Below, one piece after another: positions 18,430-63,690 of a DNA stretch of 64,000 nt. Each line of letters opens with the position of its first letter. The stretch's first letter is position 1. Both the position numbers and the translations under genes were made by a program. This DNA comes from a virus (Duplodnaviria; Caudoviricetes). The stretch spans positions 23,961-87,960 of the IMG/VR virus record IMGVR_UViG_3300021387_001147. The stretch is one strand, 5' to 3'. The notes below the pieces were generated by a model, which ran no database searches, was not told the origin of the DNA, and saw only the letters and a list, made by a program, of their open reading frames with translations.

Positions 18430-18502
18430 TTAGGTTCCTATACGGGATTGTATAATAAACTACAGTCCCTTATTTTTTCGCAACTTTTACATGTTCTATA
18501 AT

Positions 18503-21396: not shown

Positions 21397-21491
21397 TTGA
21401 TGATTGGCGATAAGAGCATCTACTACAGGTGCTCTTAATTTTTACATATCCTATGATGAAATAAACTTTATATTTTCGAAAGGAGATACTT

Positions 21492-21800
21492 ATGGTAGAA
21501 AAAGAGGTATTGCAGAATTTTATAGGAATTAAATTCTGGGATTTAAAAAGGCAACTCGGTGTCGATAACGATTATTCCGACTATAAGCAGAATAATATTA
21601 GACAGACATATCTTGACGAATGCATCGAATTGTTACCGTATTTAATGACAAGAAGCGGAACTGTAGATGAGGCAAAAAGACTGACAAAATATTATTTTGT
21701 ACTAAAGGTGTCAGAGCATCGTCACGATCTCGATATCACCAAGGCCAGAATTGATTTGGGAATTGCAGAGCTCAAAGAAAAGTGTTGTAAGGAAATTTAG
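21492..21800 (+). CDS. Stand-alone paralog of phage RNAP helical module (copy 1)
   Basis: RQTYLDEC...SEHRHDLDITKARIDLGIAELKEK aligns with RNAP 62641-62826. Confidence 0.6.
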   Translation: MVEKEVLQNFIGIKFWDLKRQLGVDNDYSDYKQNNIRQTYLDECIELLPYLMTRSGTVDEAKRLTKYYFVLKVSEHRHDLDITKARIDLGIAELKEKCCKEI

Positions 21801-21877
21801 AAATGAAAAAGATGAGGAGTCCTAACAAGGGCTCTTCTTTTTGTTGAGTGAAACGAAACAGCAAGGAGGTTATATTT

Positions 21878-22147
21878 ATGGGACCAGATTTATTAGAAAT
21901 TTACATTCCATGGACTGGCGAGATTGTTAAGACAACCCATACGAATCTTATGAGCAGCATTAAGACATTAAACAAGCTATCTCGTCCTGTTGAGTTATGG
22001 TCGTTACGGTATGCGTTTGGATTAGAGCAAAGTGCATCGAGTAAAAGAACTGTCATTTTGACAGATTCATCTGAAAACCTTGGAGTCAGAACGGCAAGGC
22101 TAAACGACAAAATAGTATTTGAATTCTACATTCGAACTGATCTGTAA
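21878..22147 (+). CDS. Hypothetical protein
   Basis: RBS aaggagg. Confidence 0.55.
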   Translation: MGPDLLEIYIPWTGEIVKTTHTNLMSSIKTLNKLSRPVELWSLRYAFGLEQSASSKRTVILTDSSENLGVRTARLNDKIVFEFYIRTDL

Positions 22148-22202
22148 TTTTTACAGCTCCTTTAATGACACTAGCATTATTATTCAAAAGGAGGAATTCA
22201 GT

Positions 22203-22463
22203 ATGAAAACACCTAAAAATGAAGTGGTAAACGTTGGAATTGAAACACTTAAAAGTCTTATTATGAAGCTTGCATATGGAGAAGGAGAATCAGATGATTT
22301 TGATAGCATTGTTGCTATTAATGAAATACTCAAAGTTCTTCTCGACGAGGTAGCTGCAATTGAGGCCGATCGTGATCAGTACAAGGAAGCCGCATCAAGA
22401 TTAAGAAACGATAAAACTATTGAATTAGAATGGGATAAAGTTGATAAAAGTAGTGTCAAATGA
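22203..22463 (+). CDS. Small helical cassette protein
   Basis: RBS aaggagga, own promoter motif. Confidence 0.7.
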   Translation: MKTPKNEVVNVGIETLKSLIMKLAYGEGESDDFDSIVAINEILKVLLDEVAAIEADRDQYKEAASRLRNDKTIELEWDKVDKSSVK

Positions 22464-22613
22464 TTGGACTGACCCTATGTGATGATATTTTACATGGGGT
22501 CTTTTCTTTGCAATTGTTGCATCTTTTTTTTAATGATACAATAATGCTTTTTCGCAAATTCTACACTCCATATAATGTAAGTAATAACTAACTTTTCAAA
22601 AGGAGGAAACATT

Positions 22614-22817
22614 ATGACAAACGAAAACTATGCGAACACTCGTGTAACGAAGAAGTACCGTATGGCTGTAGTTTCAGCAACAGCAGCACATCTTCAGAAT
22701 GCAAGAGCATCTGAGAATGGTATTGTGACGGTTGACCAGAGCTATCTTGCAGCGGTATTAAAATGCTTGAGTGCAGAAAAGACCGTTGAAGTCAGAAAGA
22801 TTGATGAGGAAAAGTAA
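22614..22817 (+). CDS. Small cassette protein
   Basis: RBS aaggagga. Confidence 0.7.
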   Translation: MTNENYANTRVTKKYRMAVVSATAAHLQNARASENGIVTVDQSYLAAVLKCLSAEKTVEVRKIDEEK

Positions 22818-22921
22818 CAAGTTATGAAACTAAAAATAGGAGAGGTACTGCTTCTCCTATTGTTTTTCTAATTGCTTCATGATATTCTATTCGTACACTT
22901 TACTAAAAGGAGGAGAGACCT

Positions 22922-23137
22922 ATGAAAGTGACGTTTGATGAGTATCTTGAAGCTTGTAACAGAAGCGTTGAAAATCCAGATATTCCTATGCCGATTCCAT
23001 GTGCTAGCTGTGAGGATGAAATGATGGAATACGATTCAGATAGTGAAAGTTATATTTGCCCATCTTGTGGAAGAGAAGTGCTACTTGAAGATAAAGACGA
23101 ATATCTTGAGGACATTGTATCAGGAAAGTATGAATAA
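22922..23137 (+). CDS. Zinc-ribbon protein
   Basis: CASC...CPSCG. Confidence 0.7.
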   Translation: MKVTFDEYLEACNRSVENPDIPMPIPCASCEDEMMEYDSDSESYICPSCGREVLLEDKDEYLEDIVSGKYE

Positions 23138-23242
23138 TAGAATTTCAAAAGGCTCTATCAGAAATGGTAGGGTCTTTTCTATTCGTAAAAATTACATCGG
23201 CTATAATGCAATGTAAACATTTATTTCAGAAAGGAGAAAATT

Positions 23243-23554
23243 ATGGCTTGGAAAGAAACTGTAAACAAATTCATGGAGCTTGGAAAGAGATTCATGCCTG
23301 AGGATTATGATTTCTCTGAATACAAGGAAGAGGGACATGGCAGTAAAAACAGCCGCAAAGTCCGGCAGGTCTATATTGGTGAATGCGTAACCACATTACC
23401 AATCATGATCTTAAAAGGAGCCGATGACGATGAGCTGATGAGGATCACTGTTATGTACTACGTACTTCTGAAGTCAGAGAAACTTGGGCTTGACTTCGGA
23501 AAGGCATGGCGCGAACTCAGGATCGACGAGATTAGAGACAAGTATACCTTCTAA
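23243..23554 (+). CDS. Stand-alone paralog of phage RNAP helical module (copy 2)
   Basis: RQVYIGE...MILKGADDDELMR...KSEKLGLDF...RIDEIRDKY. Confidence 0.65.
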   Translation: MAWKETVNKFMELGKRFMPEDYDFSEYKEEGHGSKNSRKVRQVYIGECVTTLPIMILKGADDDELMRITVMYYVLLKSEKLGLDFGKAWRELRIDEIRDKYTF

Positions 23555-23673
23555 GTTATATTTATGCTATCGAGAAGGAGGGACTTAGCACGAGACTGTT
23601 GCAAGTCCTTTCTTTTTCGCAATTTTAACAGCTCCTAGTATAGAAAAGAAGAGGCTTTTGAAAGGAGAGTATT

Positions 23674-24039
23674 ATGGCAAATAACGAACTTAGTATTGAT
23701 TGCATACTGTATATCGGCACATTATTTGAAAAATGGCGTAATCTGCTTTCGAAAGAAGACATTGCTGAATTACATAAGAAGTATGCTTTAGCACCAGATG
23801 TGACAATAATGGCAGAAAAAGCTTATAGAAAGAGGCAGAGATGCATTGGCGAAGCCGTGAGACTCATTTATGCTATTTTAGAGGATGAGGGTCTGGCCAT
23901 TACGTCAATGAATTTCAACAACGCTATGAGATATCTGCTTGTATCTATGGATTGTGTGAAGTATGCTCTTGATGTCGACTTCGCAAGAGCAGATAATGTC
24001 ATCGCTGAAATGAAAGAACAGTACATATTGAAACATTGA
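23674..24039 (+). CDS. Stand-alone paralog of phage RNAP helical module (copy 3)
   Basis: RQRCIGEAVRLI...MDCVKYALD...ARADNVIAEMKEQY. Confidence 0.65.
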   Translation: MANNELSIDCILYIGTLFEKWRNLLSKEDIAELHKKYALAPDVTIMAEKAYRKRQRCIGEAVRLIYAILEDEGLAITSMNFNNAMRYLLVSMDCVKYALDVDFARADNVIAEMKEQYILKH

Positions 24040-24151
24040 GCTTGTAATTGCTAACTAAATAATTTACAAAGCCTCTTCTTTTTTTTTTTCGCAAATTTAA
24101 CATTTACTTTAATGATATACATTAACTATTTATTATAAAGGAGGAAATGAC

Positions 24152-24328
24152 ATGAAAAGCTGGATCTTGAAAATGATTGGATTTATTCATGGAGGTGTGT
24201 TTATGACGAGTATTTGTATGAACGCTATACTTGCTCTCATTATAGCGCTCATGTATAAAGAAGACAAGAAGAAAGAAAAAGAGAATCCATGGCACAGTTA
24301 TAGCGGATATTATAATGAAAAGAGATGA
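24152..24328 (+). CDS. 58-aa membrane protein
   Basis: Not in ORF track; RBS aaggagga; hydrophobic core. Confidence 0.65.
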   Translation: MKSWILKMIGFIHGGVFMTSICMNAILALIIALMYKEDKKKEKENPWHSYSGYYNEKR

Positions 24329-24336
24329 TATTTTCG

Positions 24337-24367
24337 AAAGCTTCAGGCAGAAATGTCTGGGGCTTTT
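24337..24367 (+). terminator. Hairpin terminator, identical copy at 37644-37674
   Basis: aaagcttcaggcagaaatgtctggggctttt. Confidence 0.75.
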
Positions 24368-24430
24368 AATTTTTACAAGTCCTATGATGAGATACTTGTT
24401 AACCAGTATTCAAAGCAAAGGAGGAAAATT

Positions 24431-24802
24431 ATGAATGAAGTAACTGTAACTAAAAGGCAGAAGGCAAAGAAGTGGCTTGATGATCACACAGTTGAACTCT
24501 TGTTAGGAACAGTTGCTGTGGTTAGCGCTGGAGCTGGCATCATATGGGGATTTGATCTCGGTGACACACGAGGCTTTACTAGAGGATTAAAGACCTTTAG
24601 AAAAGAGCATTGTGATGTAGCAAAGACGATCCTTAATGAAGCAGCTCATGAAGGAGCTTTTACAGCACTGAAACTTGTGAGAGACAACAAAGAGGTATAC
24701 GAGCAGCTTCTTAAGGAACCAGATGCCGTAATCAGTAAAGTTGGGGAATTATTCTACAATTCCGAGTATGCAACGAGTATGCTGGATGTACTGAAAGAGT
24801 AA
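24431..24802 (+). CDS. Basic helix + single TM protein
   Basis: KAKKWLDDH then LLLGTVAVVSAGAGIIWGF. Confidence 0.7.
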   Translation: MNEVTVTKRQKAKKWLDDHTVELLLGTVAVVSAGAGIIWGFDLGDTRGFTRGLKTFRKEHCDVAKTILNEAAHEGAFTALKLVRDNKEVYEQLLKEPDAVISKVGELFYNSEYATSMLDVLKE

Positions 24803-24810
24803 TCTCACAA

Positions 24811-24846
24811 AAGGGCTTGCAGTTAATGCTGCAGGCCTTTATTTTT
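24811..24846 (+). terminator. Hairpin terminator, 25-bp identical copy at 28432-28456
   Basis: aagggcttgcagttaatgctgcagg + T-tract. Confidence 0.7.
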
Positions 24847-24905
24847 CTGCTCAAATATTATGAGAGCTGGTGAGTGCAGTGAACGAACTAACAAAAGGAG
24901 AGCTT

Positions 24906-25403
24906 ATGGACAAACTTTATATTCATTACGGGTCTGATCATTTAATCAAAGAGAAAGTTACTGAAATGAAACATGAAGCAGGAAGCAATATGTATATAAA
25001 TAAGCCTGACTTCGGACTTTGGGGCTCTCCAGTTGACTGTGAATTCGGATGGAAGGAGTGGTGCGAATCCGAAGACTTTCATACGGATACTCTTGATCAA
25101 TATTTTGTATTCAAGGTGAAAGACGGAGCCAAGATTTTTACAGTGAGAAAGAATGATGACGTATCAGACTATCTTCTCACTCCATATCTGTATACGCTCG
25201 AATATATGTTCCCACCGAAATACATAGATTTCAACAAAATCATGAAAGAATACGACGGCATGGAATTAATTCACGGCGATAACTATATGGATCTTCATTA
25301 TGGGTATTTCTACAGTTGGGATGTTGATTCAATAGTCGTCTGGAATCCGGATGTTATCGAAGTAGTTAGGAAGTATACGCAAAAACTACACATACTAAGA
25401 TAG
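24906..25403 (+). CDS. Conserved phage hypothetical protein
   Basis: KP..GLWGSP and SWDVDSIVVWN motifs. Confidence 0.7.
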   Translation: MDKLYIHYGSDHLIKEKVTEMKHEAGSNMYINKPDFGLWGSPVDCEFGWKEWCESEDFHTDTLDQYFVFKVKDGAKIFTVRKNDDVSDYLLTPYLYTLEYMFPPKYIDFNKIMKEYDGMELIHGDNYMDLHYGYFYSWDVDSIVVWNPDVIEVVRKYTQKLHILR

Positions 25404-25710
25404 AAAGGAGGTTGACCGGGAGGCCGGCAGAGGCACATCTATGGCCATATCTATGTCATCTCTATTTCACATCTAAGTAACGCTTTGAGTTAGATTGCAA
25501 GTAATTCAAGGCGTTATATCTTTTTGAGAAAGGAGGCGAAAAAGTGGATACACTGGGCATTGTTTGTATTGTTTTTACGATTATCATTCAAACTTTTTGT
25601 CTGGGAGAAGATTTGGGTAATTTTAAAGCGGCCGTTAAAGTTACCTGTATCTCTTTCTGGACCATGTTACTCGCTGTGTTACTATTTAAACTAATATGAA
25701 AGGAACTAAA

Positions 25711-26013
25711 ATGAAGGTATTTTTAAGTTATCCAATGAATGGAAAGTCTTTATCTGAGCAGCTTGGAATCAGGCATGCTATGAAAGAAGCATTGTGGAAT
25801 CAAGGCTATGCAGGGTGCGAAGTTACTCATAATGCCTACTGTCCGATTGTAGAAGGAGCAGGTAGACTTTACTACTTAGGACAGGCTATCTCAAAAATGG
25901 ACGGATGTGATGCAGTTGCATTTCATCCTGAGTGGATCAGGGCGAATGGATGCAGAGTTGAAAGATTTGTCGCTGAGATATACGGACTTACTATCATTGA
26001 TCTTGACATGTAA
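25711..26013 (+). CDS. DUF4406-like (nucleoside deoxyribosyltransferase-like fold)
   Basis: VFLSYPMNG...CDAVAF..EW..ANGC.VE. Confidence 0.75.
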   Translation: MKVFLSYPMNGKSLSEQLGIRHAMKEALWNQGYAGCEVTHNAYCPIVEGAGRLYYLGQAISKMDGCDAVAFHPEWIRANGCRVERFVAEIYGLTIIDLDM

Positions 26014-26029
26014 AGGAGTGATATTTATC

Positions 26030-26314
26030 ATGTGGATTTTAATTTTGACATTTATAATCGGCTTACTGATGGGCATTGTGATAGGCATTCCTGTAACACT
26101 ATATCTCTATAAAGCAGGAACTCTTGTAATTGATCAATCTGATCTTATCACAGACAAATACTCATTCGAAATAGATAAGGATCTTGCTAAGCTGCCTCGT
26201 GAAGATTATATTTCAATGAAGATCAAAGTAATAAACGAGCGTCCAGAAGTCGTTACTGAAGAGCATGTTAAGAAGTATTTAGACGTGCCTGAAGATGACC
26301 TTGACCCGCAATAA
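26030..26314 (+). CDS. N-terminal TM protein
   Basis: MWILILTFIIGLLMGIVIG; RBS aaggag. Confidence 0.7.
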   Translation: MWILILTFIIGLLMGIVIGIPVTLYLYKAGTLVIDQSDLITDKYSFEIDKDLAKLPREDYISMKIKVINERPEVVTEEHVKKYLDVPEDDLDPQ

Positions 26315-26369
26315 AAACAATGACTTTAATGAAACTATAAATTTGGTCTTAGAAAGGAGACACGGAAAC

Positions 26370-26768
26370 ATGACAACAAATTATGCGGAAACTCTTGATC
26401 AGATTCTTGAAGTAAATGCAGAATCTATATTGCAGATGGATCTGACAGATGAGAAAGCAGAAAAAGCTGTTAAGAATTTGGAAACTCTTAGTGGCATTCG
26501 TGTTCAACTGTATCAGGCACAGCAAGAAGCATATGAAGCTGAAGTTAAGGCTCAGCAGGAAGATGCTAAGGCTGTACTTGATCGGAAGAATACGGTTGCA
26601 ACATGGGCAACCAATGGCTTCACAGCTGTATTGATGCTTTTCTCTGCGGTAACTCCGTTTGTGATCATGAACGCTGAGAAAGAGGGCAGATTCTGGTCGA
26701 GAGCTGCCATGAATGCTGTCGAAAAGGGTCCGAAGTTTGGATTCGTAAAGGCTATTTTTAGGAAGTAG
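26370..26768 (+). CDS. Coiled-coil + TM protein
   Basis: RBS aaaggag. Confidence 0.7.
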   Translation: MTTNYAETLDQILEVNAESILQMDLTDEKAEKAVKNLETLSGIRVQLYQAQQEAYEAEVKAQQEDAKAVLDRKNTVATWATNGFTAVLMLFSAVTPFVIMNAEKEGRFWSRAAMNAVEKGPKFGFVKAIFRK

Positions 26769-26872
26769 TTTCAATCGGTTTAAGGCCCTGTGTGATATTT
26801 TACATGGGGTCTTAATTTTTACAAGTCGTATAGTGATACTAATTAAAATGTTTCTGAGAAAGGAGAAATGTT

Positions 26873-27220
26873 ATGAAGGAAGAAACTATTAACAAACTTG
26901 ACAGGATCAAAAGAAAGATCGATGACCATCCACTTTTGGCAGGTCTTATTATAGGCATATCAACCGGGTCGATCATTGGCATTCCTTATTTGATTGGCTA
27001 CAAGCACGGTAAAGTAGACATGCTTAATACTGTGGATAAAAGTACAGAGCCAATCATTCAGAGAGCCTTTGACATTGGTGGAGAAGTCGTGTATAGGACG
27101 ATTAAAGAAAAGGCACCGAAAGCTTTCGATATGATACATAAAGAAGTTGGGACGTTTTTAACAGTTGAGTATCCTGGAGCAACAGTAGACTATTTCAAAG
27201 GAACTATCAGAGTAAAATAA
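26873..27220 (+). CDS. Basic helix + single TM protein
   Basis: KRKIDDHP then LLAGLIIGI...YLIGYKHG. Confidence 0.7.
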   Translation: MKEETINKLDRIKRKIDDHPLLAGLIIGISTGSIIGIPYLIGYKHGKVDMLNTVDKSTEPIIQRAFDIGGEVVYRTIKEKAPKAFDMIHKEVGTFLTVEYPGATVDYFKGTIRVK

Positions 27221-27290
27221 GTATTATTAAGGGCTTGTGGCAAATGCTACAGGTCCTTATATTTTTCGCAAAAACTACACATACTAAGAT

Positions 27291-27453
27291 AGAGAGTAAA
27301 TACAAACTGAAGACTAGTTTCAGTTAAGTATTGAGCTCAAGGGATAAGAGCTAGTGGTTCTAGTATCCTAAACCCTAACCAGGCATGGATATTGTTCAAG
27401 TAGAGTGGGAATCTTGAAAAGGATTCTGCACCCCTTGCAACTCTTATTTTTTT
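27291..27453 (+). ncRNA. Putative multi-stem ncRNA cassette
   Basis: Promoter motif, no RBS or ORF, three internal hairpins, 5'/3' closing stem, T-tract. Confidence 0.55.
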
Positions 27454-27549
27454 CTGCTCGAACGTAGTGAGAACTGTGCGAGTGTAACGAGTTTTTCGCA
27501 AATTTAACAGCCACTATGATAGAAAATATTTTATAAGGAGGACGAAAAT

Positions 27550-27750
27550 ATGTTTAGTTTTGAAAGGTCTGTAGCAAAAGTAAGATTGCATTATCATGCC
27601 AATCGAATCGACATTAACAACGCACTTAATCAGTTGCATTTGATGTCTGACGAGAGGAATGAGGAAAGTAATAAGAAGCATACTATGATCCTATTCACAG
27701 ATGTATATCCAAGACTTCTTGGCAGAGATATTTTTAAAGATAAGGAATAA
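27550..27750 (+). CDS. Small cassette protein
   Basis: RBS aaggagga. Confidence 0.7.
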   Translation: MFSFERSVAKVRLHYHANRIDINNALNQLHLMSDERNEESNKKHTMILFTDVYPRLLGRDIFKDKE

Positions 27751-27857
27751 TGAAAAGGGCATCTTTTACAGGTGCTCTTTCTTTTTCGAACGAACCGCAA
27801 ATATTTCATGGATTTTAATGAAAGAAAGGGCTTTCTAATAAAGGAGGAACTTATATT

Positions 27858-28130
27858 ATGAAACGTAACAGAGTCATAAGAATCAACATTTATACTGAAG
27901 GCTATATTGTAGCGGCAGTATGGTTTCTGGCAGCGGCAATAGCTCTGATGACGGCAGGTCATGTAACAGAAAACGTTAAGTACATGATGCTTGTCGGTAT
28001 CGGAAGTTTGTTGACGACTCTTACACAGAGATTGATAACAGAATACAAGAATAGACAAAAAATAAAAAGAATGATGATTGATACATATGGCAAAGATGAA
28101 TACGAAAGGTACATGAAAAGTAAGAAATAA
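27858..28130 (+). CDS. Two-TM small protein
   Basis: RBS aaggagga; two hydrophobic helices. Confidence 0.7.
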   Translation: MKRNRVIRINIYTEGYIVAAVWFLAAAIALMTAGHVTENVKYMMLVGIGSLLTTLTQRLITEYKNRQKIKRMMIDTYGKDEYERYMKSKK

Positions 28131-28260
28131 CTCTTAACTAATTCAAGCCCTTTCTTTTTCTGCTCGAATGGAGTGAGAACTGGTGAGTATGACGAACCGC
28201 AAATATTTCATGGCTTTTAATGATACAATTCAGATTATATTTGAAAGGAGAACTGCAGTT

Positions 28261-28425
28261 ATGAAAATTAATTTAGATATCGGAAAAGCAGGACTTGGCT
28301 TATTCGGTGCTGGCTTAGCTATATTAGCAGGCATTGTTGAGGACAAGAAAATGGAATATACCGTAGAAAAGGAGGTGAAGAAACAGCTCTCTGGAGGAGA
28401 TGAATCTGAAGAAAAGAAGAAATAA
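28261..28425 (+). CDS. Small membrane-associated protein
   Basis: GLGLFGAGLAILAG. Confidence 0.65.
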   Translation: MKINLDIGKAGLGLFGAGLAILAGIVEDKKMEYTVEKEVKKQLSGGDESEEKKK

Positions 28426-28528
28426 AGGCATAAGGGCTTGCAGTTAATGCTGCAGGTCCTTACATTTTTGCAATTTTTACATTCTTTATTATAGAACATA
28501 TTGATCTAAATAAAGGAGGAAAAGGATT

Positions 28529-28768
28529 ATGAAACATGAAAAAATATGGTACTTTCTGGCGTTATTTGGACATGGAAATTTGCTTATGACAGTAATTATA
28601 GCGTTCGTAATTAGGCTTATGCACAACGTAGGTCTTGCATCTAGTACTATGAATAGTATTGGAACTGGACTTGCTATGTATGGCGTGGCTTGTTACGGTG
28701 CTGCATTAACAGTAGCATATTTCCTGGACAAATATGAGGAAAAGGACAAAAGAAAGGAGGCGAAATAA
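28529..28768 (+). CDS. Two-TM small protein
   Basis: RBS aaggagga. Confidence 0.7.
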   Translation: MKHEKIWYFLALFGHGNLLMTVIIAFVIRLMHNVGLASSTMNSIGTGLAMYGVACYGAALTVAYFLDKYEEKDKRKEAK

Positions 28769-28889
28769 TCCTCCTCTTTATTTTTTTTCTGACTGAATTG
28801 AAAATAGTATATTATAGAACAAAATGTTCGCAATATTAACATCTCCTATGATAGAACAATACATGTTTTATTATGAAAGGAGAAGAATT

Positions 28890-29066
28890 ATGTTTAAATT
28901 GTTTGGAATTAAACGCTATACAGAGGGATCAAAGATTGCATGTGTGCAGGATTCAACTGAAGATATGAGTCTTGAGCACTTAGAAATCGATGATCTCAAC
29001 GAAAGGATATTAAGAACAAATGAGAAACTGATGAAAAATTTTCAGGAGATATTAAGAAACATGTAA
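28890..29066 (+). CDS. Small coiled-coil protein
   Basis: RBS aaaggag. Confidence 0.6.
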   Translation: MFKLFGIKRYTEGSKIACVQDSTEDMSLEHLEIDDLNERILRTNEKLMKNFQEILRNM

Positions 29067-29170
29067 AAAAGAATTCGGGGATCTATTACAGGTCCCTGAT
29101 ATTTTCGCAGTTTTTACACTTCTTATAATGAATCAAGATGGAATGAATTCATATAAAGGAGGAAAATATT

Positions 29171-29344
29171 ATGACTAGTTTACTTATGATTGCACTTTGT
29201 TGCGTGATTCTGGCGGTATTGCTGCCTATTTTAGGAGCAATCTTTCAGGTTATTGCGCCTGTGTTAGCAGTAATAATAATCGTTATATTTGTCCCTCTGG
29301 CAATTGGAATCATTGTCGGACGGATTTCAAATAGAAAGGAGTGA
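29171..29344 (+). CDS. 57-aa very hydrophobic protein
   Basis: Not in ORF track; RBS aaggagga; MTSLLMIALCCVILAVLLPIL... Confidence 0.7.
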   Translation: MTSLLMIALCCVILAVLLPILGAIFQVIAPVLAVIIIVIFVPLAIGIIVGRISNRKE

Positions 29345-29433
29345 TATTGAAGGGGATCTATTACAGGTCCCCACAATTTTTACAACTCCTTTAATGAAAC
29401 ATTCTTAAATGATACTTTAAAGGAGGATTAATT

Positions 29434-29730
29434 ATGTATTATAGTTACAAACAAGCATTAAAAGATCTATTTGAGATAGGCGAAAAGGACCTGTGGGTAG
29501 TTCGTGCTTTCACTGAGAACGATGTAGCAGGTACTGAGGTGTTCTCTATTTATGGAACGAAAAAAGAAGCCAAAGCCTATATTAAGAGTGTAAGAAATTA
29601 TTATAAAACAAGTAGATTTTATGAGTTTCTTAGAGAAAATATAGTGACTGGCTCTTTTAGAGTCAAAGAAGTAGGAACGAACAATATACTGCTGAATAAA
29701 TTTCAGTTAATTCACGAAAGAGCTGCATAG
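29434..29730 (+). CDS. Small cassette protein
   Basis: RBS aaggagga. Confidence 0.65.
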   Translation: MYYSYKQALKDLFEIGEKDLWVVRAFTENDVAGTEVFSIYGTKKEAKAYIKSVRNYYKTSRFYEFLRENIVTGSFRVKEVGTNNILLNKFQLIHERAA

Positions 29731-29812
29731 GCTCTTTTTTTTCTGCTTGAGTATTTTCGCAATTAATACACTCCTTATAATGAAATACTTATTAAATTAA
29801 GGAGGTTCGACT

Positions 29813-29959
29813 ATGAAAAGATTATTGAAATGGATGGCAAAAGTAATACTTGAGGCAGCACTCGAAACTGTTTGGGGAATGATTGGTGCTGTAGTAATAC
29901 TTGTATCACTTGGCAAGATATTTGAATTCATAGAAAGGAGGACTAATAAGAGTAAGTAA
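29813..29959 (+). CDS. 48-aa membrane peptide
   Basis: Not in ORF track; RBS aaggagg. Confidence 0.6.
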   Translation: MKRLLKWMAKVILEAALETVWGMIGAVVILVSLGKIFEFIERRTNKSK

Positions 29960-30073
29960 TTCGAAGGAGATGCTGGACGAATGATATTTACATCTGGCAT
30001 TTCCTTTCGCATTTTTTACACTTCTTATAATGAATCAATAGCGATTCGTTTTCAGAAAAGGAGGAAAAATAAT

Positions 30074-30139
30074 ATGTTTACAATCGGCGTTGTATTGATT
30101 TGTGCTGGATTGATCCTGTTAGTAATGGATCATAAATAA
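30074..30139 (+). CDS. 21-aa hydrophobic peptide MFTIGVVLICAGLILLVMDHK
   Basis: Own promoter motif, RBS aaaggagga. Confidence 0.55.
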   Translation: MFTIGVVLICAGLILLVMDHK

Positions 30140-30220
30140 CAACTGAATCGACATAACTAAGATGGGGACAGGATTATCTTGTCCTCTCTTTCTTTTTTCT
30201 TTTTGAAAGGAGGATTATAT

Positions 30221-30652
30221 TTGAAAGGCTACACTATTTGTCCTGGATTTGGCAAGGCGTTTAAGAGAATTCGAGATCGCTATGGCATGACCATGAAGCA
30301 ATTCGGAAAGACACTCGGCATATCATCGTCGACTTGTCATAGGTACGAGCATGAAATAGCAAAAAGAATACCAGAGGACGTGTATAATAGCTTACTTGCA
30401 CTCGCTATGTATCCGGAAGATACTAATCTATTATATTCTCTTGTAAACGAAGATGACAGCATAGATGAAGAAATGCTCAGACTTCAAGGAATTATTGATC
30501 AATTAACGGAAGAAAACAAACATTTAAAAGCGCTACTTACTGAAAAATGGATTAAGGAATGGGAAGCACAGAACAGATTATACGAGATTACCAAAAATCA
30601 CAGGAAAGGCATAGAAGACTATTTACCTGAAGCATTTAGAATAAAAGAATGA
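30221..30652 (+). CDS. XRE HTH protein with coiled coil
   Basis: KRIRDRYGMTMKQFGKTLGISSSTCHRYE; TTG start after aggagg. Confidence 0.75.
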   Translation: MKGYTICPGFGKAFKRIRDRYGMTMKQFGKTLGISSSTCHRYEHEIAKRIPEDVYNSLLALAMYPEDTNLLYSLVNEDDSIDEEMLRLQGIIDQLTEENKHLKALLTEKWIKEWEAQNRLYEITKNHRKGIEDYLPEAFRIKE

Positions 30653-30694
30653 TTCGTATTTTCAATCACATTAATGAAGAGGGGAGCATAAAAA

Positions 30695-31015
30695 ATGGCA
30701 CTTGTAGATAAAAATGAAATGATGGAACTTGGCAAATACTTTATTAATGGCATCGCTTACGGTGGATCTGATCCAGTTAAGGATTATATCCTGAAAGATA
30801 AGCCGTCAATTAAACAGAAGCTTGAGACTAAAGCAACTCTTCTGAAATGCCTTAACACAGCTAAGAAGATGAAGGCAAAAGGTGCTGATCGTAATGACAT
30901 GCTGGATGCACTCACTTATGCTTATATTTTGCTTGAAACCGAAGAGCACACTATGGATCTTGGAAGAGCTAAGGCTGACTTTAGAATGGATGAGATTCAG
31001 AGGAAGTATACTTAA
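30695..31015 (+). CDS. Stand-alone paralog of phage RNAP helical module (copy 4)
   Basis: MKAKGADRNDM...ETEEHTMDLGRAKADFRMDEIQRKYT. Confidence 0.6.
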   Translation: MALVDKNEMMELGKYFINGIAYGGSDPVKDYILKDKPSIKQKLETKATLLKCLNTAKKMKAKGADRNDMLDALTYAYILLETEEHTMDLGRAKADFRMDEIQRKYT

Positions 31016-39417: not shown

Positions 39418-39954
39418 ATGAAGAAACAGATTGAAATTAACTTTGACAGTGGCATTGTAGTTGGAGGAGTGAGTCTTTTAGTTTCTGCTGTGTCTATTAT
39501 ATTTGCCGGTAAAGCTTCATCGAAACTTAATCGGTTCAGTAAGAAGATCGGGATGTCTCTTGAAGATCTGTCAAATAAGACATCGGTTGAGATCACTGAG
39601 GAAATGGTGAACCGGTGTACTGAAACAGCTGTACAGAAGGCTGCGGACAAAGCTGCTAATTCTGTAATTGCTACGATTAGATCCGATGCTGATGCTGTAA
39701 TTAGTAGCAAAGTACAGGATGCTATTCAGAACCAGTACGATAATGTGAAGGACGATGTTACAAGAGAGCTCAGAAAGCAGGTATCCAGGATCAATGTCTC
39801 AAGCCTCAAGGCTGAAATCAAGGACAGCGTGAAGAGAGAAGTTACGGATAGACTTCACAACGAGATGAATGATATTTTGGATAGCTATAACTCGCAGCTT
39901 ACTGACATCGGTAAGATCTATTCGTCTATTGCTGATAGTATGAGTAAGAAGTAA
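39418..39954 (+). CDS. TM + coiled-coil protein
   Basis: RBS aaaggag. Confidence 0.7.
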   Translation: MKKQIEINFDSGIVVGGVSLLVSAVSIIFAGKASSKLNRFSKKIGMSLEDLSNKTSVEITEEMVNRCTETAVQKAADKAANSVIATIRSDADAVISSKVQDAIQNQYDNVKDDVTRELRKQVSRINVSSLKAEIKDSVKREVTDRLHNEMNDILDSYNSQLTDIGKIYSSIADSMSKK

Positions 39955-59789: not shown

Positions 59790-59931
59790 GCCATAATATT
59801 ATATTTAAAAGCAGTCTTTGCAGGTGCTATAAATTCGCAAAAATTACAAGGCGTATAATAGAAGAGAAGGGATAGAATACGGCATTTCTAGAACTTCTTT
59901 TAATTTTCGAATTATTGAGAGGTGCCTTGTA

Positions 59932-60825: not shown

Positions 60826-63690
60826 ATGGACAATTATATTTCATCAGCAAATGACGAAATGTTAGATGAATTCTTAATGCACTATGGTGTTGGTCCTGAT
60901 GACAATCCACCTGGCAGAGGATCAGGAAGATATGCAAAAGGCAGCGGTGACAATCCGCTTCAGCACGACACTAGCATTTTGGGCGTTGTCGCAGACATGA
61001 AAAAGCAAGGCATGTCAGAGTCTGATATAGCTTTAGCGCTTGGATTTGTGAACCGTAAAGGTAAACCATCTACGACATCACTTAGAGCTGCACAGTCTAT
61101 TGCTAAAGATCAGAGAAAGCTCGATCTGTCACAAATGGTTCCAAGGTATAAAGAAAGCGGCATGAGCAATCAGGCTATAGCTTCTAAACTTGGAATCTCT
61201 GAATCGTCTGTTCGTAACTATCTTGATAAAGACAGAACAATTCAGCTTGGCAAGGCAACCAATGTTGCTAACAGACTGAAAGAAGAATTAAAAACGAAGC
61301 ATTATATTGACGTTGGTCCTGGTGTCGAGCTTGAAAACGGCGTTTCTGCTGAACGAATGAAGACAGCACTTGAGATGATGAAGCAAGAAGGATACAAGAT
61401 TCATCTCGTAAACGTCGAGCAAGTTGGAAATCCTGGGAAATACACAACGATCAAAGTAGTAGGCGAACCAGATACTGAATGGAAGACTGTTGTTCAAGAT
61501 CCAAGCCTTATAAAGCCATTTCAGAGCTATGCTCAGAATGACGGTGAAACTGTTCTTGGACTTAGACCAGTTAAGTCGATTGATTCGAAGCGAGTCTATA
61601 TTAATTACACTGATGAAAATGGTAAAGGCGGCGCTGAGAAAGACGGAACCATTGAACTTAGACGAGGCGTTGAAGACATTTCTCTTGGCAACAGTAGATA
61701 TGCTCAGGTTCGAATTGGCGTAGATGGCACTCATTACATGAAAGGTATGGCTATTTATAGTGATAACATACCTGACGGCTATGATGTTGTCTATAACACT
61801 AATAAAAAGATTGGAACTCCTCCTGAAGATGTCTTCAAACCTATGAAAAGGATTAAGAATCCAGATGGTTCTGATGGTCCAATCAATCAGGAGAATCCAT
61901 TTGGTGCTTCTATTAAGCCTTTCAATGCTGGAGGCCAGAGCTACTGTCTTGATAAGAATGGCAATCCTACTGATCAGCTTAGAGTTATCAATAAGATTAA
62001 TGATCAGGGCGACTATGCTGAGTGGTCTAAGACTATTTCGGCACAGGTTCTTGCTAAGCAACCATTACCACTTATCAGAAGACAGCTTGAGCTTACTTAC
62101 CAGGACAAAGTTGAACAGTACAATACCATCAAGTCGTTAGATAATCCAACAATCAAGAAGAAATTGCTTGAATCATTTGCCGATGATTGTGATGCTTCTG
62201 CCGTTCACCTTAAAGCTCAGGCATTTCCTGGTCAGGCTAGTCATGCTATCATACCAATTCCTTCTTTAGCCGGTGATGACAACTACAAGAAGAAGCATGG
62301 CGTTGATGGTGAGATCTATGCACCGAATTATGAGAATGGAACGACTGTTGCTCTTATACGATACCCGCATGCTGGCACATTTGAGATTCCTATTCTTAGA
62401 GTTAATAATAACAACAAAGAAGGTCGCGCTGTTCTTGGCAATGCTCCTGACGCTGTTGGAATTAATGCTAAGATTGCAGAACGATTATCAGGTGCCGACT
62501 TTGATGGTGACACTGTTTCTGTAATACCTACAACTCATACGAATATTCTTAGTACACCAAGACTTGACGGACTTAAGAACTTCGATCCTAAGATGTATAA
62601 GTTTGCTGACCCAAATGCACCTGGCATTAAGTCACAAACTAAGCAGACTGAGATGGGTAAGGTTACAAACCTGATTGCAGATATGCAGATCAAGGGTGCT
62701 AAGCCTGAAGAGATTGTAAGAGCTGTTAAACATTCCATGGTTGTTATCGATTCAGAGAAGCATCATCTTGATTACAAGGCATCCGAAGCTGACAACAGAA
62801 TTAAAGAGTTGAAAGAACTGTACCAGAGAACTCCTGAAGGTACTGGCGCTTCCACACTCATCACTCGTGCTGGATCAGAGAAGCATATTCCTGAGCGTAA
62901 GGTTGGCAGTGTTGAGATTACAGATCCTGTTACTGGCAAGACACGTAAGTATTATGGAGTTGATCCTCGTACTGGCGAGAAGATACTTGTGCCTACTGGT
63001 AATACTTATGAGAAAGATGGCAAGACAGTAACAAGAACGGAGACAGTTCCTTGGATGTCAATCAAGACTGACGCAAGAGAACTGATGTCATCACGGAGTA
63101 ATCCAAACCCGGTAGAGCTGGCTTATGCAAACTATGCTAACCGTATGAAAGCTATGGCTCTTGAAGCTAGGAAGGAAGCAGTGAATACCCCCGGACTCAA
63201 GAGAGACCCCCAGGCTGCCAGGGAGTACCGTGAAGAAGTTGATACCCTCACCTCTAAACTGAACATCGCTTTAAAGAATGCACCTAAAGAAAGGCAAGCT
63301 CAGATCATTGCTAATGTCACCTATAAGAATCAGATAGAATCTAACCCATCCCTGAAGGAGGATAAGACCTATCTGAAGAGACTACGTGGCCAGGCACTTG
63401 ACGCCGCTCGTCGACGCATTGGCGCTGGCAAAACAAGGATAGACATAACTGATAGGGAATGGGAAGCTATTCAAAAGGGTGCCATTAGTGATGCAAAGCT
63501 TAGAAAGATTCTGGATAACACCAAATCTGAAGAGATTGTTAAGCGTGCAACTCCAAGAGAAAACAAAGCTTTGTCTGCAAGCAGGGAGGCATTAGCTAAA
63601 ACAATGGCCGCCTCTGGTTACACACAGGCAGAGATAGCACAGAGACTTGGCGTGTCTGTCACTACTGTATCTAAAGCTATTAATGGTTAA
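60826..63690 (+). CDS. Putative single-chain two-barrel RNA polymerase with N- and C-terminal HTH domains
   Basis: QVR...KGM (61705-61749), RYPH (62359), GADFDGD (62491-62511), GKVTNL...VIDSEK; HTHs AIASKLGISESSVRNYL and EIAQRLGVSVTTVSKA. Confidence 0.78.
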   Translation: MDNYISSANDEMLDEFLMHYGVGPDDNPPGRGSGRYAKGSGDNPLQHDTSILGVVADMKKQGMSESDIALALGFVNRKGKPSTTSLRAAQSIAKDQRKLDLSQMVPRYKESGMSNQAIASKLGISESSVRNYLDKDRTIQLGKATNVANRLKEELKTKHYIDVGPGVELENGVSAERMKTALEMMKQEGYKIHLVNVEQVGNPGKYTTIKVVGEPDTEWKTVVQDPSLIKPFQSYAQNDGETVLGLRPVKSIDSKRVYINYTDENGKGGAEKDGTIELRRGVEDISLGNSRYAQVRIGVDGTHYMKGMAIYSDNIPDGYDVVYNTNKKIGTPPEDVFKPMKRIKNPDGSDGPINQENPFGASIKPFNAGGQSYCLDKNGNPTDQLRVINKINDQGDYAEWSKTISAQVLAKQPLPLIRRQLELTYQDKVEQYNTIKSLDNPTIKKKLLESFADDCDASAVHLKAQAFPGQASHAIIPIPSLAGDDNYKKKHGVDGEIYAPNYENGTTVALIRYPHAGTFEIPILRVNNNNKEGRAVLGNAPDAVGINAKIAERLSGADFDGDTVSVIPTTHTNILSTPRLDGLKNFDPKMYKFADPNAPGIKSQTKQTEMGKVTNLIADMQIKGAKPEEIVRAVKHSMVVIDSEKHHLDYKASEADNRIKELKELYQRTPEGTGASTLITRAGSEKHIPERKVGSVEITDPVTGKTRKYYGVDPRTGEKILVPTGNTYEKDGKTVTRTETVPWMSIKTDARELMSSRSNPNPVELAYANYANRMKAMALEARKEAVNTPGLKRDPQAAREYREEVDTLTSKLNIALKNAPKERQAQIIANVTYKNQIESNPSLKEDKTYLKRLRGQALDAARRRIGAGKTRIDITDREWEAIQKGAISDAKLRKILDNTKSEEIVKRATPRENKALSASREALAKTMAASGYTQAEIAQRLGVSVTTVSKAING

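Follow-up and report, generated by a model that had tools for sequence, protein, structure and literature searches.

Stand-alone paralogs of a predicted bridge-helix and trigger-loop module from a phage two-barrel RNA polymerase in the cassette array of a gut phage

At the heart of every RNA polymerase of the cellular type lie two moving elements, the bridge helix and the trigger loop. In the enzyme, this helical unit follows the barrel that carries the DFDGD motif. Its bridge helix holds the template in position, and its trigger-loop helix, which bears a D..K motif, does the same for the incoming NTP. The secondary-channel factors Gre and DksA reach the active site with the acidic tip of a coiled-coil hairpin. 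The YonO/1706-type phage polymerases are poorly studied and are common in gut Clostridia prophages and actinophages. To our knowledge, the bridge helix and trigger loop have not previously been seen as an independent gene product. The closest described counterparts of the unit are found in QDE-1 and plant RDR2, in which a bridge helix and a rigid trigger-loop subdomain likewise come after the Asp-triad barrel and are held together by hydrophobic packing between the two elements (PMC9508822; 10.1101/2021.08.31.458351). The residues concerned in QDE-1 are L1082, G1083, M1084, N1087 and R1091 of the bridge helix and V1115, D1116 and K1119 of the trigger loop (PMC9508822), and those in RDR2 include G886 and K923 (bioRxiv 10.1101/2021.08.31.458351).

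Here we analysed a window of 64,000 nucleotides, which belongs to an 88-kb gut phage and carries both a polymerase of this kind and four small ORFs that, on the sequence evidence given below, are true paralogs of its residues 578-668. The parent gene (60826..63690, plus strand) encodes a 954-aa RNA polymerase of the single-chain two-barrel type, which carries an HTH module at each end and is a member of the phage 1706 / YonO-like family (phrog_4291, PHROG match E = 0). Its AlphaFold model finds QDE-1 (Foldseek E 1.9e-8), RDR2 and two-barrel polymerases of phages as structural matches, and the Pfam RdRP profile aligns weakly to aa 549-645; when the PDB was searched by sequence, with either the polymerase or its profile as query, matches were confined to the HTH parts. 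The codons of the catalytic DFDGD triad lie at 62497..62511 (plus strand, aa 558-562), and the segment homologous to the small ORFs lies shortly downstream at 62557..62829 (plus strand, aa 578-668), as had been claimed in the first-pass annotation for the part of it that corresponds to aa 606-666. This segment contains a loop with FDPK.Y, the bridge helix H603-622 with M610, G611, N615 and D619, the trigger-loop helix H627-646 with I641, D642, K645 and H646, and two short helices (650-656 and 659-666). It shares the motif logic of QDE-1 and RDR2, namely [LM]-G-x3-N in the bridge helix and [VI]-D-x2-K in the trigger loop at like spacing (PMC9508822; 10.1101/2021.08.31.458351), the bridge-helix Gly and the trigger-loop Lys being 36 residues apart in QDE-1, 37 in RDR2 and 34 in this polymerase. 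The annotation had put the segment next to the active site as in QDE-1/RdRP-like enzymes, and this can now be refined: with residues mapped by motif and not by superposition, aa 578-668 correspond to the bridge helix and trigger-loop subdomain.

The four small ORFs are all on the plus strand: paralog 1 at 21492..21800 (102 aa), paralog 2 at 23243..23554 (103 aa), paralog 3 at 23674..24039 (121 aa) and paralog 4 at 30695..31015 (106 aa). That they share a pattern with the 954-aa polymerase was noted before at these coordinates, and several independent comparisons agree on it far beyond chance. By pairwise BLASTP, all four align to polymerase aa 582-666. When run against the 1,378 six-frame ORFs of the genome, an HMM built from the four ORFs found the polymerase as its sole other match (E 1.8e-11), and conversely an HMM of the polymerase family matched, besides the polymerase itself, just the four ORFs (E 4e-9 to 1.6e-4). 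Profile-profile alignment by hhalign of the four ortholog groups against 57 polymerases gave a probability of 97.2% (E 4.6e-11), and 96.7% with the four ORFs alone. In a search of 1.84 billion proteins, polymerases were matched with whole-database E-values down to 5.6e-8, and each of the 31 large matches carries D[FY]DGD 30-70 aa upstream of the matched region. No fifth copy was found in the genome at E<0.1. The ORF at 39418-39954, a weak match of the polymerase HMM, was rejected with an hhalign probability of 0.4%.

The predicted fold agrees with this relationship. Paralog 2 was modelled by AlphaFold2 with a pLDDT of 92.6, and its helices 24-27, 38-57, 62-81, 85-91 and 94-101 correspond to 588-591, 603-622, 627-646, 650-656 and 659-666 in the polymerase model, each shifted by the same 565 residues; separate alignments underlie the two models, and it is the helix boundaries that are compared, not a three-dimensional superposition. 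A profile-profile match and a shared predicted fold, whose absence was to count against the first-pass annotation, are both present. The model has one additional N-terminal helix, and according to it the small proteins keep the hydrophobic core of the helical unit and add an N-terminal capping helix. Foldseek against the PDB with the small-protein model returned nothing at E<=0.001, the ESM Atlas search gave no usable match, and a wide fold search (VIA) gave only generic helical bundles with Z<6, the model containing a helical hairpin.

The small proteins are homologous to about 90 residues of the phrog_4291 polymerases, aligning solely to aa 578-668, and have neither the two double-psi beta-barrels nor the DFDGD triad nor the HTH ends; therefore they cannot be polymerases. 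Unlike the unit in QDE-1 and RDR2, the unit here is a separate protein of 100-120 aa with an extra N-terminal helix, in which most residues contacting template or NTP are replaced. N615, D619 and H646, invariant in polymerases, are variable in the small family and lost in the window copies; D642 or K645 is lost in three of the four, and the positive charge of the module is absent. The earlier description of the copies as non-catalytic is thus borne out. At the same time, paralog 3 alone among the four keeps the bridge-helix G and the trigger-loop D and K, and the wider family retains the D in 66%, the K in 82% and the G in 70%. Such retention would fit the idea that the small proteins provide these two elements of a polymerase in trans, or take their place, so that the active centre becomes split or exchangeable and its properties change. 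We regard this as highly improbable: the polymerase of the genome has an intact module of its own, the polymerase-family HMM found no barrel-only protein in the genome, and N615, D619, H646 and the positive charge are lost.

The small proteins show in addition family-specific hydrophobic shifts (H636>Y, S653>A, N657>L/F, H646>Y). Together with the N-terminal helix, these may bury the surface that lies against the barrels in the polymerase, and docking into a polymerase core would, if so, become harder. The copies are under purifying selection, judging by substitution rates: paralog 2 and its metagenomic ortholog give a dN/dS of 0.16, with zero amino-acid changes across the two long helices at dS 0.35.

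Beyond this genome, about 100 diverse stand-alone relatives or clusters were found among the 1.84 billion proteins, conserved in length and in the position of the module. In other phages, HTH, zinc-ribbon, membrane or coiled-coil parts are joined to the module, and tandem forms also exist; some fusions resemble the polymerase minus its barrels, and several join the module specifically to polymerase pieces (the N-terminal HTH pair, the N-domain, the sigma-4-like HTH). A 1365-aa match, P0027, is a TPR-repeat false positive. No family in Pfam, NCBIfam, PADLOC or PHROGs matches the small ORFs above threshold, although two of them weakly match phrog_4291 at the polymerase positions of the same segment; with no description in those databases or in the literature found, the stand-alone family is, as the first-pass annotation supposed, previously undescribed. 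A number of database relatives share 57-75% identity with polymerase modules and might be fragments, which raises the idea that the small genes are functionless, decaying pieces of duplicated polymerase genes. This we find barely credible for the copies studied here, given the dN/dS above, the confident predicted fold, the length and module position conserved over about 100 diverse clusters, and the ribosome-binding sites, putative promoters and terminators that the copies have of their own.

Judged by its sequences, the small family is a large, old and mostly single clade, largely separate from the polymerases, and the four ORFs are not more similar to the polymerase of their own genome than to other polymerases. 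An old and separate clade could have acquired an unrelated function, and it is conceivable that the bundle was captured long ago as a generic helical domain whose role, for example as an adaptor or in oligomerisation, now has nothing to do with the polymerase. The lack of special similarity to the co-resident enzyme, the promiscuous fusions to unrelated domains and the merely generic bundles recovered by the fold searches all speak for this possibility, which we consider unlikely though worth serious attention. Against it stand the fusions with polymerase pieces and the co-occurrence with the polymerase. A free copy and the polymerase are found together in all five copy-bearing genomes examined (the phage's own genome, G006, G033, G041 and G048), while the polymerase itself occurs in no more than about 2% of Lachnospiraceae genomes. 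G041 is the one case to which the small protein led; the others had been preselected for the polymerase, and the association thus rests on few unbiased cases. Consistently, no clear stand-alone copy without the polymerase was found in 401 Lachnospiraceae genomes, and among GenBank phages the module occurs only in polymerase-bearing records.

The reverse does not hold. Free copies are missing from 38 of 40 polymerase-bearing IMG/VR records and from 49 of 50 polymerase-bearing bacterial genomes, and the small genes are accessory, about 95% of polymerase-bearing phages doing without them. Single-protein scans of IMG/VR with P0037, P0053, P0028, P0030 and P0025 returned zero loci, that with P0032 returned one locus, and the metagenome scan yielded a single short contig. 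The first-pass annotation had named three candidate functions, those of a modulator, a dominant-negative subunit and a decoy. That the genes are accessory and patchily distributed speaks against an obligatory subunit of the polymerase and is compatible with a regulatory or conflict role.

Two kinds of small protein offer analogies for such a role. microProteins, such as Id and LITTLE ZIPPER, are likewise small single-domain paralogs co-encoded with a multidomain parent, and by analogy the small ORFs might compete for the contacts of the domain they copy; known microProteins copy dimerisation domains of eukaryotic transcription factors, whereas here the active-centre module of an enzyme is copied. 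T7 lysozyme, other small phage RNAP binders and anti-sigma factors may share the principle of a small accessory protein that restrains a polymerase, and the membrane-anchored relatives of the small ORFs recall anti-sigma factors; unlike the small ORFs, those proteins are not paralogs of polymerase parts, and no sequence or fold is shared.

Our favoured reading, to which we give a probability of roughly 0.4, is that the small proteins act on a phage-type polymerase as non-catalytic, microProtein-like mimics of its active-centre module. Their binding partner would be the one that the bridge helix and trigger loop normally have in the enzyme; this could be the barrel core while a polymerase folds or breathes, or a factor entering through the secondary channel to reach the module. 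Such binding would damp or redirect transcription by this type of polymerase. The target could be the phage's own enzyme, for timing or feedback as with T7 lysozyme on T7 RNA polymerase, or the polymerase of a rival related phage, for exclusion. Since the genes are accessory and four divergent copies sit in a hypervariable array, a rival's polymerase is as likely a target as the own enzyme. A specific form of the latter option, in which the dead copies of a resident (pro)phage fill the active-centre slot in polymerases newly made by superinfecting relatives, whose late genes are thereby silenced, is distinctly unlikely on our estimate; if true, it would constitute a new exclusion type via active-centre mimicry, with the HTH- and membrane-fused relatives as variations.

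The same genomic setting can be read in another way. Accessory, multi-copy and divergent genes in a hypervariable array are typical conflict genes, the part retained is exactly the secondary-channel-crossing loop plus bridge helix and trigger loop, and membrane-anchored and tandem forms would suit sequestration; the small proteins might therefore be protective decoys, which show the secondary-channel face of the polymerase and soak up an inhibitor or sensor from the host or a rival phage. This proposal is rather unlikely, in that a sensor would normally be set off by a decoy of its ligand, the PADLOC search was without match, and we know of no factor that targets this polymerase family. Moreover, surface residues invariant in polymerases are not retained, and the exposed face is therefore poorly mimicked. 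Mimicry of the active-centre module, should it be true, would be a new principle of transcription control or of phage-phage exclusion. Whatever the function, the family suggests, with the fold as modelled, that the bridge-helix and trigger-loop unit can fold and evolve alone, which bears on the evolutionary assembly of two-barrel polymerases, and it offers natural candidate probes or inhibitors for YonO/1706-type phage polymerases.

Regarding the genes themselves, a strong Shine-Dalgarno sequence precedes each of the four small ORFs. Paralog 1 forms a monocistronic cassette flanked by terminator-like hairpins (21411-21437 and 21814-21837), while paralog 4 is probably co-transcribed with an HTH-protein ORF that ends 43 nt upstream of it. 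Cassettes are variably present or absent among relatives, some of which carry orthologs of the small ORFs; that of paralog 3 is missing in the related contig L171. The exact motif TTCGCA-N14-TATAAT shows no enrichment around distant homologs of the polymerase (3 occurrences vs 3 expected), and therefore we make no claim that the phage polymerase reads it. Within the window, one type of promoter-like 26-mer is common to the cassettes and the polymerase operon, all on the plus strand: TTCGTA-N14-TATAAT upstream of paralog 2 (23182..23207), TTCGCA-N14-TAGTAT upstream of paralog 3 (23616..23641) and TTCGCA-N14-TATAAT upstream of the two-gene unit whose last gene is the polymerase (59834..59859).

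Four small genes of the window, ORFs 21492, 23243, 23674 and 30695 (102, 103, 121 and 106 aa, named by start coordinate), lie at the places given by the first-pass annotation, each behind a GGAGG-type ribosome-binding site. The pattern they had been said to share with the window's 954-aa polymerase is real homology, since BLASTP, HMM, profile-profile and large-scale database searches are concordant. Pairwise BLASTP on a small test set linked 23243 to 21492 (E = 1e-13) and 30695 (E = 1e-11), the link of 23674 being weaker than those of the other small ORFs, and polymerase residues 582-666 are the single place where all four align. Searched against the genome's 1,378 six-frame ORFs, an HMM of the four matched only the polymerase (E = 1.8e-11). 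The polymerase-family HMM returned, after the polymerase itself, exactly these four, each matched at profile positions 532-615, and a broader family HMM found no fifth module copy in the genome. The annotation had staked its claim on a profile-profile match or a shared predicted fold, and in profile-profile comparison 28 orthologs of the four ORF groups matched 57 polymerases with a probability of 97.2% (E = 4.6e-11), the four ORFs alone matching 80 polymerases at 96.7%. In addition, HMMER run without filters against 1.84 billion proteins gave 192 proteins at E ≤ 1e-3, the best 150 of which were examined. Among these 150 are 31 large proteins (887-1127 aa) whose match lies at about residues 540-800, and all 31 have D[FY]DGD 30-70 residues upstream of it.

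The parent protein (60826-63690, plus strand) matches phrog_4291 along its whole length (E = 0) and carries a helix-turn-helix (HTH) match at each end. It belongs to the "phage 1706" branch of YonO-like proteins (PMC2919709), and DNA-dependent RNA polymerase activity has been proven for YonO itself (PMC5467207). An AlphaFold2 model based on 57 homologs (pLDDT 85.7, pTM 0.78) matches QDE-1 (Foldseek E = 1.9e-8, probability 1.0) and also phage P74 gp62, P32 gp64, P23-45 gp96, plant RDR2 and crAss-like phage gp66. Thus the window protein has the two-barrel polymerase fold. The window covers bases 23961-87960 of an 87,960-bp IMG/VR virus record, and the sequencing runs that contain it are animal-gut metagenomes. 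The polymerase's relatives, 41-50% identical to it, were found in three collections: GenBank (about 250 phages of Arthrobacter, Gordonia, Streptomyces, Lactococcus and Faecalibacterium), IMG/VR (at least 273 contigs) and GTDB (305 genomes, mainly of gut Lachnospiraceae, Oscillospiraceae and Ruminococcus). Homologs were also seen in metagenome-assembled genomes labelled Bathyarchaeum, Scandinavium, Parabacteroides, Burkholderiaceae, Bacteroidaceae and Absconditabacterales (loci L115, L127, L132, L151, L154 and L159); these are probably mis-binned phage contigs, not true hosts.

What the shared segment does in such enzymes is known from two structures. In QDE-1, template contact by the bridge helix involves L1082, G1083, M1084, N1087 and R1091, NTP contact by the trigger-loop subdomain (residues 1102-1136) involves V1115, D1116 and K1119, and hydrophobic packing locks the two subdomains together (PMC9508822). 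In RDR2, a loop exits the Asp-triad barrel, spans the secondary channel and reaches a bridge helix with the conserved G886, after which come a helix (906-922) and K923, the counterpart of the multisubunit trigger-loop histidine (10.1101/2021.08.31.458351). In the phage polymerase, helix 603-622 contains M610-G611-x3-N615-x3-D619, and helix 627-646 ends with I641-D642-x2-K645-H646; the eight named residues are invariant in 57 homologs. The distance from the last catalytic Asp to the bridge-helix Gly is 72 residues in QDE-1, 52 in RDR2 and 49 here, and that from this Gly to the trigger-loop Lys is 36, 37 and 34, respectively; the Pfam RdRP profile aligns to residues 549-645 below threshold (E = 0.0087). 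We conclude, by motifs, spacing and overall fold match and not by residue-level superposition, that residues 578-668, just after DFDGD (558-562), are the channel-crossing loop, bridge helix and trigger-loop subdomain. This bridge-helix/trigger-loop (BH-TL) unit is called the module below, and the corresponding subdomains of QDE-1 and RDR2 are the nearest structures to the small family.

The small proteins are non-catalytic, self-contained versions of this unit. ORF 23243, modelled by AlphaFold2 from an alignment of 71 small relatives and zero polymerases, reached pLDDT 92.6 and pTM 0.85, with helices at 2-17, 24-27, 38-57, 62-81, 85-91 and 94-101. In the models, the last five correspond at a constant offset of 565 to polymerase 588-591, 603-622, 627-646, 650-656 and 659-666, while helix 2-17 has no counterpart, the enzyme having a barrel strand and loop there. 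Column comparison gave a common core of F586, Y591, G611, L616, M620, G624, A625, E629, R632, A633, V639, D642, K645, L648, D649, D656, I659, L662, K665 and Y666. The same comparison showed the polymerase-invariant N615, D619, T621, S637, M638 and H646 gone from the small family, and hydrophobic preferences gained (H636>Y, S653>A, N657>L/F, H646>Y). Of the four copies in the window, 23674 alone has retained all of G, D and K. The polymerase module is basic (median pI 9.1, charge +3) and the small family near neutral, the window's copies having charges of -1.4, -1.3, +1.6 and -2.3. With the template and NTP contacts gone, the recognisable partner would be the barrel core that normally cradles the unit, or alternatively something approaching it via the secondary channel. 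For this reason we favour, with a probability of about 0.4, that the small proteins mimic the active-centre module and so act on the phage's polymerase system; the microProtein is the nearest known concept. The main caveat is that the barrel-contacting face may be hidden by the extra N-terminal helix and the newly gained hydrophobic residues.

Among the 150 matches examined, 97 are no longer than 140 aa, mostly 100-125 aa, with the module C-terminal. The small proteins matched no Pfam, NCBIfam or PADLOC family, and neither the literature searched nor curated family libraries describe stand-alone BH-TL proteins. Other architectures are tandem double modules (P0049, P0061), and modules joined to a sigma-4/LuxR-like HTH (P0052, P0088, P0101), to the polymerase's YxDVG...EGY N-domain (P0082, P0137), to a zinc ribbon (P0039), to a membrane helix (P0085, P0163) or to a coiled coil (P0115, P0165). 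A 193-aa protein of genome G033 (L167, G033:C1:16800-19200, minus strand) joins the module to the polymerase's N-terminal HTH pair, its residues 6-83 aligning to polymerase 54-137 (E = 4e-7). In a Blautia faecis prophage (L169, G048 contig, 105500-108000), a protein of about 269 aa begins with the module and continues into an uncharacterised domain (about 200 aa, with GVRPAFRV at its end); it lies 25 kb upstream of the same prophage's polymerase. The BH-TL unit is the single part kept in every architecture, and several of the fusions look like barrel-less polymerase genes. In two related phages, one genomic slot with near-identical upstream DNA contains a 103-aa bare module (L166, G006) in one and the HTH-pair fusion (L167) in the other.

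A tree of the module separates the 57 polymerases from 71 divergent small proteins with only two label changes (42 in shuffles), so the small family is mostly one old clade. The changes rise to four once 30 extra polymerase-like small proteins join, some of which may be gene fragments. Moreover, small copies are not nearer to their own genome's polymerase than to other polymerases. The family's age would be enough for a move to a job unrelated to the polymerase, which we regard as only somewhat less probable than action by mimicry.

Free copies are rare: 2 of 40 polymerase-bearing IMG/VR records and 1 of 50 polymerase-bearing bacterial genomes hold one. By tblastn, the module in GenBank phages is found almost only within the polymerase gene (252 places in 250 records, the same as the polymerase records), and a second query matched polymerase genes only. 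In all five genomes found to have a free copy (the window's, G006, G033, G048 and G041, the last alone reached via its small protein and the others via the polymerase), the polymerase lies 16-40 kb downstream on the same strand. Of 401 Lachnospiraceae genomes sampled, 8 encode the polymerase and one of these 8 a free copy as well; no clear free copy was found where the polymerase is lacking. In the window's lineage, cassettes come and go as wholes, with breakpoints at terminator-promoter junctions. In contig L171 (1-1579, against window 23321-24900), the 23674 cassette is absent, and the ortholog of ORF 24870-25403 comes right after that of 23243. Metagenome contigs bridge whole cassettes at such junctions (e.g. 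21438 to 21863 and 23637 to 24078), their short flanks making this weak evidence. Because the genes are accessory and multi-copy in a hypervariable setting, a role in conflict is at least as likely as self-regulation, and could be the poisoning of rival polymerases or the decoying of an inhibitor.

A metagenomic ortholog of 23243 differs by 13 synonymous and 10 non-synonymous changes (dS 0.35, dN/dS 0.16), and the two long helices are free of amino-acid change. Related contigs hold orthologs of all four ORF groups, and bovine-gut contigs hold relatives of 21492 and 23243. It is well supported that the four genes are non-catalytic, free-standing paralogs of the BH-TL unit, that they are under selection and that they are linked to the polymerase.

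Terminator-like hairpins flank 21492 on both sides. A promoter-like 26-mer, TTCG[CT]A-N14-TATAAT, precedes 23243, 23674 and many neighbouring cassettes, and is found again at 59834-59859, before the two-gene unit of a 209-aa gene and the polymerase that ends it. It occurs 12 times on the genome's plus strand, with window sites at 18477, 22551, 23182, 27265, 27495, 28827, 29104, 29756, 30006 and 59834-59859; it has an internal TTTACA-like core, and its spacing is incompatible with a sigma-70 promoter. Near distant polymerase homologs, the strict pattern shows no enrichment. In an unrelated 63-kb phage (L168, G041:C1:26300-28700, minus strand), the small-module gene comes after a similar element, TTTGCA-N14-TATAGT, and a hydrophobic mini-ORF of 21 codons. 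An Xre-type HTH and coiled-coil protein (30179-30652) is encoded 43 nt upstream of 30695 with no terminator between, its real start probably being a later ATG past the terminator at 30164-30186, and this neighbour echoes the HTH-module fusions found elsewhere. The cassette immediately upstream of 23243 is a 71-aa zinc-ribbon ORF with two CxxC pairs (22922-23137), and the database relative P0039 has the module fused to a zinc ribbon.
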